NCBI GenBank assembly: GCA_963692525.1
Contig: OY829953.1
Location: 3,475,108-3,539,107, forward strand
Direction: 5' to 3'
DNA: 64,000 bases
DNA from: Opitutales bacterium
GTDB lineage: Bacteria > Verrucomicrobiota > Verrucomicrobiia > Opitutales > PNEW01
Under the pieces are notes generated by a model. That model had not been told where the DNA came from. It saw only the letters and a program-made list of their open reading frames with translations, and made no database searches. The position numbers and the translations under genes are program-made. Every line of letters begins with the position of its first letter. The stretch's first letter is position 1. Positions 40,568 to 42,095 of the stretch are shown here, piece after piece.

Positions 40568-40724
40568 CTTGCTAAGGGTAAAAACTGTCGAGACCGCAAG
40601 TAAAGCTTTATTGTCGAGAACTGAACTCGTCTCGTTATACCTAATAGTATCTCAATCTTCGTCTTCGTCAGGCCTTCGTCCCGGTATTAGCAAGCCGTGG
40701 AAAAAAGATTACAAAGCAATTGTG

Positions 40725-41657
40725 TCATGAAGCAAGAGCTAATTGTTGTTTTTTAAGAAGGGACTGCAGATGAATAAGAAGTTTTCTCATGGCGGCAACG
40801 AGAGCACATCGGTAAGGCATCCCCCGATCGACTAACCTTTGTACATAAGGCCTGATCACGGGGTTGTGCTGAGCGGCGGTGCGAGCGGCCATATAGAGAC
40901 ATTTTCTGACTTTGGCACGCCCCCCTTTGATCGAACGTTTTGCATGGCTCTTCCCACTGTCGCGGTTATAGGGGGCGAGTCCGGCAAGGGCGACCATCCG
41001 ATTGCGGTTGAGATGAGTCATTTCACTCAAATAGGCGAGGAGGGTCCAGGTCGTCACTTCCCCGACACCTTTGACTGAAGTGAGCAATTGGGCTTGGGCG
41101 CGCAGGAGATCATGCTCGTTGATGAGCTTTCGCAGCTGCTGGTCGATGCCCTCGATTTGTTTTTCAACGAAACGAATCATGCGCTGGATGGAGCGGTGGA
41201 TTATCTTCGAACTGTTCTGCAAGCGGTTCTTCTCGCGGCCAAGTTGTTCGCTCAGGTGATGGCGCCGGTCCAGTAAGGCCGTCATCTGTTGCTGCTGCTT
41301 GGTGGGAGCAACCATGGCCTTCAAGTTCTTTTGCTGCGCAAAGCGCAACAAGACCTTCGCATCAATCTTATCGGTCTTCGCACGGATGCCATCGCTCGTG
41401 GCGAAGGCCCGTACCCGTGCAGGGTTAATCAGGCACACCGCAACCTCTGCTTCATGCAAAGTTGCCAGGAGGGCCCGCTCGTAACCTCCTGTGGCTTCGC
41501 ACACGACAAAGGGTCGATCCAGCTTGCTCAGCTCTTTGAGCAGTTGTTTGTGTCCTGCGTTGTTGTTACTGAGACCGTAACTGTGGCTTTCGCTTTGCAC
41601 CTGCAAGGTCTCTTTGGCTATGTCTATGGCGATGAGGGTGTGTTTTTTTTCATTCAT
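40725..41657 (-). CDS. IS110 family recombinase (DEDD RuvC-like plus Tnp20 domain)
   Basis: IAIDIAK, VCEATGGYE, AKTDKIDA, SVKGVG, AGLAPYNRDSG, GGRAKVRKCLYMAA, ALVAAMRKLL. Confidence 0.96.
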   Translation of the reverse strand: MNEKKHTLIAIDIAKETLQVQSESHSYGLSNNNAGHKQLLKELSKLDRPFVVCEATGGYERALLATLHEAEVAVCLINPARVRAFATSDGIRAKTDKIDAKVLLRFAQQKNLKAMVAPTKQQQQMTALLDRRHHLSEQLGREKNRLQNSSKIIHRSIQRMIRFVEKQIEGIDQQLRKLINEHDLLRAQAQLLTSVKGVGEVTTWTLLAYLSEMTHLNRNRMVALAGLAPYNRDSGKSHAKRSIKGGRAKVRKCLYMAARTAAQHNPVIRPYVQRLVDRGMPYRCALVAAMRKLLIHLQSLLKKQQLALAS

Positions 41658-41975
41658 GGCTATCTCGGTCTTGTCAAGATGAGCTCGCGGTGGTATACTC
41701 CGGGCTCTTTCAATTGTTTGAGATTAGCCAGGTTAGATCGGAGGTTCCCAGGCTTCGTCTTGAACTCGGCTAACGCTGGTTCCAGACGATGAATGAACTC
41801 ATCCGATTTGCTCCCGGTTCCCGGAATTGGGTGCCGGGAGTTCCTGGCACTCTCAAGTTCTTTTGTGCGCAAAGCGCAACAAGACCGTTGAAATCTTTTT
41901 CCAGTCCTTCCTGCGACGAGTTTTATCGACCCATTCTCGGAAGGACTCATAAGCTCCTCTTTCCATTGCACGGTA
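41657..41975 (-). ncRNA. Predicted IS110 bridge RNA (5' hairpins, target-binding loop 41737-41807, donor-binding loop 41657-41730)
   Basis: Stems ATCGGA/TCCGAT and TGGCTAATCTC/GAGATAGCCA enclose internal loops with TCATCGTCT + AGACGAAG (target guides) and ACAATTG + ACAAG (donor guides). RNA ends are approximate. Confidence 0.8.
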
Positions 41976-42095
41976 ACCTACAAGGCGATGAGGCACAGAC
42001 CCGTCTTCGCAGAAGCCTACGACGTCGCAAGCGAAGACGAAGAGGAGGAAATAAGCGGGTCGGTTCTATTCTGAAAACTAACTTTCGCCCCGCTA

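Follow-up and report, generated by a model that had tools for sequence, protein, structure and literature searches.

The window, a stretch of 64,000 nucleotides of an Opitutales genome, carries on its minus strand an insertion sequence (IS) of the IS110 group that encodes a recombinase (Table 1). A domain search recognised PF01548 (the RuvC-like DEDD domain) and PF02371 (the domain with the catalytic serine) in the 310-aa protein, which also passes NCBIfam NF033542 (201.5 bits, cut-off 140) and aligns with the recombinases of IS621 (E = 3.8e-39) and ISCro4 (E = 6e-39). Its D12, E54, D96, D99 and S234 align opposite D11, E60, D102, D105 and S241 of IS621, residues whose roles are described in PMC11208158. 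The intact DEDD/serine recombinase proposed in a first-pass annotation, whose quoted sequence words were all located where it had placed them, is thus borne out; the catalytic residues are intact, and activity is predicted. The closest named relatives of the protein are 83–91% identical and labelled Opitutales, and a metagenome scan returned relatives of just 34–44% identity.

Ten copies of the element are present in the host genome (4.49 Mb, one contig), seven with an open frame and three frameshifted near codon 252, and in the contigs of four sequencing runs its depth is 10–18 times that of the flanks. All ten begin with CT-TGTAGG and finish with ACAATTG-CT. The CT core at both ends and the donor ACAATTG-CT-TGTA, both first read from the window copy, therefore hold throughout the genome, and the empty alleles described below place the ends identically. 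The left end is long (typically 306 nt) and the right end short (8 nt after the stop codon), and no long inverted repeat was seen by eye in the aligned element ends. Membership of the IS1111 group, whose bridge RNA lies in a long right end and whose ends bear 7–17-bp sub-terminal inverted repeats according to PMC11208160, was rejected because of the 8-nt right end.

Table 1. Features of the element and its surroundings in the window (predicted features are marked as such).
Feature	Position	Strand	Detail
IS110-group element including both CT cores	40715..41984	minus	10 genome copies, empty alleles
Recombinase ORF, 310 aa, DEDD/serine	40725..41657	minus	D12, E54, D96, D99, S234
Left CT core	41983..41984	minus	genome copies and empty alleles
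Right CT core	40715..40716	minus	genome copies, run contigs, empty alleles
Left target TCATCGC	41985..41991	minus	position 7 is T in both empty alleles
Right target TTGTA	40710..40714	minus	the other 9 copies have TCGTC; contigs of 4 runs bear out this junction
Right donor TGTAG	41978..41982	minus	ends of all copies
Left donor ACAATTG	40717..40723	minus	right end 8 nt past the stop
Host intergenic repeat with TCTTCG-type hexamers, holding the target	41992..42043	minus	inverted copy at 40667-40656
Non-coding left end, predicted bridge RNA plus 5' extension	41658..41982	minus	325 nt here, 306 nt in 8/10 copies
Predicted -10 box TAGGTT of a circle-only promoter	41975..41980	minus	17 nt from the -35 box after end joining
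Predicted -35 box TTGCTT, in the last ORF codons	40730..40735	minus	TTG, by eye, in 20/20 elements with a right end
Hairpin A, its stem covarying and its apex, CGAGAATGG..CTCGTCG[G/C]AG, near-invariant	41903..41948	minus	common to IS3, IS21, IS256 and other IS110
Private 27-nt patch replacing 8 nt	41857..41883	minus	copy of ORF 41355-41321 minus one base
GCCAGG, 5' arm pairing with CCTGGC (41732-41727), enclosing the variable stem-loop and target loop	41843..41848	minus	100% paired, 2 double-change pairs
Variable stem-loop	41811..41840	minus	13/13 pairs with double changes
Target-binding loop	41737..41807	minus	left guide TCATCGTCT 41792-41784, right guide 41760-41753, handshake C 41752
Donor-binding loop	41658..41730	minus	left guide ACAATTG 41717-41711, right guide ACAAG 41674-41670, handshake A 41669

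Left flanks read TCATCG(C/T) in nine copies and TCTTCGT in one, and right flanks read TCGTC in nine of ten, the window copy alone having TTGTA. The typical target in this genome is TCATCG(T/C)-CT-TCGTC, within an intergenic repeat, which makes the TTGT flank of the window an outlier. Loose contig ends in two of four further runs pass from the right flank through one CT to the left flank: TCATCGT-CT-TTGT in run X9 (14 letters) and TAATCGT-CT-TTGT in run X13 (13 letters), the latter with zero cover across the element body. These empty alleles with one CT indicate that the target is not duplicated. Of the empty target first reconstructed, TCATCGC-CT-TTGT, the single CT and the TTGT half recur in the empty alleles, whereas position 7 is T there and TTGT is atypical; likewise, the distinct specificity claimed for the element is real but is directed at the typical target rather than at the flank seen in the window. 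On sequence grounds, the element is confirmed as an IS621-type member of the IS110 family with a DEDD and serine site, CT cores and no target duplication.

Between its genes the host carries a repeat of TCTTCG hexamers, of which the target is a rare variant; TCTTCGTCTTCGTC is found at 43 genome positions, 39 of them outside long ORFs, against 0.03 expected. Occupancy differs sharply within this repeat family: 8 of 9 TCATCG(T/C)-CT-TCGT sites are filled, compared to 1 of 48 TCTTCGT-CT-TCGT sites, which carry one mismatch at position 3. In three of three relatives purS and the DHDPS-family gene are adjacent without the element, and one of them (G001) retains a perfect free target between the two genes; for these empty regions (G001–G003) the gene order was confirmed, the DNA being too diverged for base-by-base alignment.

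Several further observations concern the sites. The right flank of the window copy, TTGTAAT (40714-40708), equals in 7 of 7 letters the right target predicted from the guide of two relatives (G136 and G097), by chance or because it is a shared repeat variant. Five left-end scars of 9–58 bp lie in the same repeat family, at genome positions 66496, 624878, 2771475, 3935183 and 4198408; the scar at 624878 bears TCTGCCT as its left target, the one that the guide of sister lineages uses, and is likely a fossil of the earlier guide. Run X9 also contains a relative of the element with a TCTGCCT guide and ORF deletions of 119 and 12 nt (window 41375-41495 and 41185), as does run X12.

To characterise the left end, we collected recombinase relatives with E ≤ 1e-70, found in 23 of 401 genomes of the order including the window's own (G000); a full left end of 291–321 nt was available in 20 relatives, two others lacking upstream DNA and one being interrupted. 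In the consensus structure of these 20 elements, which was mostly derived from the consensus fold of the same alignment, 92% of cells are paired and 44 of 66 pairs are doubly changed; none of 500 shuffles scored as high, and slid controls were also far below. From 5' to 3', the order is hairpin A, a weak small hairpin, the GCCAGG/CCTGGC helix enclosing the variable stem-loop and target loop, and the donor loop. The variable stem-loop is likely the counterpart of the IS621 5' stem-loop. Folding together with homologous alignment thus supports the two stem-enclosed loops first described, with compensatory changes in their helices, except for the outer TGGC/GCCA part of the donor stem. This outer stem is the weakest element of the structure (probability 0.07 in the naked consensus RNA, double changes in 1 of 5 pairs), and its TGGC more likely pairs with the upstream GCCAGG.

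CCTGGC (41732-41727) can pair either with this upstream GCCAGG or with the GCCA over the start codon (41661-41655), both options being kept in two relatives (G161 and G168); the alternative pairing may constitute a translation switch. At another relative's locus (L195, G097), DNA resembling an inserted IS interrupts the left end and separates hairpin A from the target loop. Neither the left end nor hairpin A matched Rfam at gathering score.

Joining of the ends would rebuild a TTGCTT-17-TAGGTT promoter on the circle. By eye, TTGnnn and TAnnnn with a 16–18-nt spacing are present in 20 of 20 elements, a weak consensus whose -35 box overlaps a Leu codon. An internal promoter just upstream of GTGCCAGG was discarded as a candidate, being present in the closest copies and not conserved among the 20 aligned elements.

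Guides were extracted by a fixed rule blind to the target from 18 elements, G001 and G209 having been dropped as near-duplicates. Exact matches to the left flank of the same element number 86 of 126 letters for the left guides, where 20,000 permutations averaged 37.7 and peaked at 70. For the right guides, in the 16 elements whose right flank was usable, 57 of 64 letters match (permutations: mean 20.4, at most 40). Since the rule slips by one letter in several elements, the match count is conservative. In 13 of 18 elements (7.3 expected, P = 0.0016), target position 7 is the complement of the letter that follows the right donor guide; P values here overstate the support, related elements not being independent. 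The handshake C of the target loop and donor G7 are invariant among the relatives; an invariant C facing G7 would be as predicted by the IS621 handshake model. By eye, the flank matches are poor in two elements (3/7 in G397, about 4/7 in G168). Sites recur with the guides in other lineages: CGCAT(G/A)T-CT-CACTA in 5 of 5 copies in G040, and TCTGCCT-CT-TCGTC at four of four loci (L001–L003 and L005).

The donor behaves in the same way. ACAATTG appears in two separate branches and ACAGTTG elsewhere (on a quick-method tree, two long-branch outgroup rows being ignored), and the left donor guide tracks this difference in 18 of the 20 elements with a right end, the remaining two (G194 and G209) differing at position 7. 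The right donor guide ACAAG is invariant. The left donor guide comprises 7 nt; the core C comes directly after it in 2 of 21 elements. In 5000 dinucleotide shuffles, the left end never contained more than two of the four guide words. The first-pass annotation had assigned target and donor guides to the two loops and had made covariation of the loops with insertion sites a test of this; the comparison with relatives comes out in favour and extends to the donor and to the handshake letters, which that annotation had not noted. Of the 10 filled sites, 5 have C at target position 7, as do 3 of 5 in G209, though the guide, the handshake letter and both empty alleles favour T.

Because the left-end loops match target and donor and change with them across relatives, it is very likely that the element moves by RNA-guided bridge recombination. 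Were sites instead chosen by protein–DNA recognition, with the loop matches being remnants or chance, guides and sites would not be expected to change together across recombinases of 46–100% identity, nor would three guide letters differ between G000 and G003 (83% identical) together with the same three target letters; we regard this reading as barely tenable. An additional requirement for a DNA structure in the host repeat, as for ISPpu10, is improbable but less remote: the targets are situated within a family of intergenic repeats that has inverted copies close by, and a second gate has been reported for ISPpu10 (bioRxiv 10.64898/2026.03.19.712850). Against such a gate, copies c6, c7 and, in part, c9 have little repeat context left of the target, and the occupancy contrast of 8/9 with 1/48 is explained by one guide mismatch within the same repeat family.

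The window copy itself differs from its sisters by a private patch in the left end. The length of ~325 nt first given for the non-coding left end is correct for the window but not typical, the surplus over 306 nt stemming from this replacement of 8 nt by 27. In the fold model the patch pairs with the right donor guide (0.99); with that guide masked as predicted, the window copy may not make a working RNA. The patch starts exactly at a CT-TGTTG site in the ORF (41355-41343) that is complementary to the right donor guide, and half-match recombination could thus have created it. In the left flank, contigs of three of four runs are shorter by 2 nt at window position 41994, where the assembly may contain a small error.

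Whether the window copy is damaged or mis-assembled, and mobile only if sister copies provide the RNA, is in our judgement evenly balanced. The patch is missing from the collapsed element contigs of six runs, the 2-nt difference at 41994 points the same way, three of ten copies are frameshifted, and one more copy in the genome has its own, different patch at the same spot. Contigs, however, lose rare variants, so that absence of the patch from the reads is not established, and the run X8 and window ORF alleles show 0 differences over 40714-41638. For engineering, the 306-nt majority left end should be chosen rather than the patched window copy.

Hairpin A, at the 5' side of the left end, has a nearly invariant apex in 20 of 20 elements that were found by protein alone, and 9 of its 14 stem pairs are doubly changed. 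An exact-pattern search of the phylum found it in 25 of 401 genomes, with one match for the reversed control, and further matches occurred in 3 of 151 genomes of the phylum of G722 (G722 included), 1 of 121 of that of G723 and 0 of 121 of that of G724. G721 and G722 contain 7 and 26 copies, respectively. Flanks outside the search pattern are 77% Watson-Crick in 49 genome stems compared to 24% in 14 viral ones; the viral matches (23 loci, none with IS110 downstream) were therefore treated as mostly chance, and a plasmid BLAST with two hairpins gave chance-level matches only. G-T pairs exceed A-C pairs (29 vs 12 in the 49 stems), so that one strand folds; an earlier count of 32:2 was discarded as biased, the stems having been selected with G-T counted as paired.

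We classified 30 loci from the phylum search by the neighbouring IS. Eight have an IS110 gene 203–358 nt downstream, a further eight have an IS110 left-end word upstream, and three have a stem as in IS110 carriers and are cut off by contig ends. Three loci lie inside IS3 elements, one beside an IS256 fragment and one in an IS256-like end (by eye), and four have repeated ends of unassigned family, one of them preceding a weak match to a REP-tyrosine transposase. At one locus no IS was seen, and one resembles a chance match. In G722, hairpin A is located 116 nt inside an IS21 end (istB checked at one locus; the loop variant is common to 20 of 26 copies), 100 nt inside IS256, and on either strand in IS110 elements. 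Overall, it sits within IS3, IS21, IS256 and other IS110 elements at 40–120 nt from an end, and wherever the end can be placed its strand reads inward from that end. No transposase was found near three G895 matches and the G767 matches.

A repeated element beginning TGATATGGGTGACA bears hairpin A in G722 (L323:123-1900) and G721 (L288–L294), and at L323 a 410-aa ORF without a match to a known family lies beside it. G394 has nine copies of a 1,762-bp IS3-family element (L274–L277) in which no terminal inverted repeat was found; the similar flanks of two compared copies suggest a site preference.

Hairpin A is likely a separate host-recognised signal. What it does is far less certain. Our tentative proposal is that a host factor binds it on single-stranded DNA and that it primes second-strand synthesis. 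IS3, IS21, IS256 and IS110 are listed as circle-forming in bioRxiv 10.1101/2023.06.07.543989, their circles presumably arising by copy-out-paste-in, and IS621 is described in bioRxiv 10.64898/2026.08.31.748434 as excising mainly a single-stranded circle. The broader version, in which IS110, IS3, IS21 and IS256 each acquired such a signal just inside one end, where it would prime second-strand synthesis on a single-stranded copy-out intermediate in Verrucomicrobiota and some deltaproteobacteria, is possible but less likely than not. Counting against priming, DnaA boxes are not enriched (6 of 50 hairpin instances vs 6.2 expected; L247 alone has a paired box-like stem), and two IS110 loci (L296 and L316) have the hairpin and the transposase on opposite strands.

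Hairpin A might instead work as RNA, as a 5' module, bound by protein or processed by nuclease, in the bridge RNA and in transcripts entering IS ends; all RNA roles taken together are a real possibility that falls short of even chances. The hairpin lies ~30 nt past the predicted junction start site, its strand always runs inward from an element end, and it contains tandem G-A pairs; the IS621 bridge RNA is supplied by read-through transcription (PMC13626964). The preference for G-T over A-C pairs would also fit an RNA but is equally compatible with single-stranded DNA. Against an RNA role, the hairpin is antisense behind the transposase in IS21, IS256, one IS3 and two IS110 loci, it has no Rfam match above chance, and a terminator at this place would truncate the bridge RNA. 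We know of no promoter behind the transposase in the antisense carriers, and with several such carriers a DNA-level priming signal is narrowly favoured over an RNA module. Among specific candidates, a DnaA-box hairpin (the A site of the ABC primosome) was rejected for want of box enrichment, and a terminator because no U-run follows the stem and none was called on the minus strand; hammerhead, hairpin and HDV-like ribozymes and the standard kink-turn did not fit by eye when their consensus features were compared.

Taken as a whole, we are highly confident in the reading of the locus as an IS621-type element that very likely recombines DNA through a bridge RNA, with hairpin A likely a separate host signal and a priming site the best guess for the latter. 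Excision would join ACAATTG-CT-TGTAG, and the junction would form the predicted promoter. From it, an RNA of roughly 295 nt would fold into hairpin A, variable stem-loop, target loop and donor loop, as suggested by the compensatory changes in the helices. The guides would read TCATCG(T/C)-CT-TCGT, binding being predicted from sequence covariation, and by analogy with IS621 the D12/E54/D96/D99 and S234 site would swap strands at CT without duplication. Handshake pairs between the target-loop C and donor G7, and between the donor-loop A and target T7, would assist the exchange. In the least certain and still doubtful step, a host factor would bind single-stranded hairpin A, which would then prime copying of the excised single-stranded circle.

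As a bridge system, the element is one further natural ortholog of an established kind. A 2026 preprint (10.64898/2026.10.21.760802) predicts the guides of 32,190 bridge RNAs, and such catalogues may therefore already include this clade. A literature search covering papers and the readable parts of the PMC11208160 supplements, with 2 of 10 Verrucomicrobia rows, returned nothing on the clade or on hairpin A; those supplements contained no Opitut or apex string. The well-resolved clade nevertheless offers 20 elements whose four guides and handshake letter can all be compared with real sites, and the 8/9 against 1/48 filled sites give a natural measure of specificity. What appears to be new is hairpin A, seemingly undescribed and recurring in unrelated IS families, and it matters more than the bridge system alone. 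To our knowledge, host replication of IS circles is poorly defined, and a compact motif in four transposase families makes it testable by point mutations.

Known systems resemble the element in part. ISPpu9 and ISPpu10 of Pseudomonas putida are likewise IS110 elements inserting into repeated intergenic sequences; unlike them, the present element has no second downstream small-RNA gene, given its 8-nt right end. The A site of the ABC primosome (PMC6127211) is, like hairpin A, a strand-specific hairpin on an element needing second-strand synthesis, but hairpin A lacks DnaA-box enrichment, its conserved part is the purine-rich apex, and its priming role is predicted. In run X6, the left end continues behind 41984, in a single contig, into chromosomal GACACAATTG-CT (position 3684735, L194), a site that matches the left donor and not the target. 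This junction, seen in that one contig of one run, is possibly a natural case of the donor-only half-match insertion reported for IS621 in bioRxiv 10.64898/2026.08.31.748434.

The closest comparison is with IS621 and ISCro4/IS622 (PMC11208160, PMC11208158; PDB 8WT6, 9T56). Shared features are the DEDD and serine recombinase, the CT core, a long left end in which the target loop precedes the donor loop, the right donor TGTA, the handshake pattern, a predicted junction promoter and insertion in intergenic repeats (REPs for IS621). The likeness to the IS621 donor that the first-pass annotation had pointed out holds for the right half (4 of 5 letters), positions 6–14 being those compared, from PMC11208158. 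The left end is longer here (291–321 nt vs 191 bp in IS621), the right end reaches just 8 nt past the stop, and target and donor letters are different. The left donor guide has 7 nt without the core C, compared to 8 nt with it in IS621 (A123–C130), a difference that supports a variant, the core C being a detail of the IS621 RNA and not family-wide. Hairpin A and the enclosing GCCAGG/CCTGGC helix are present here and not in IS621 or ISCro4.
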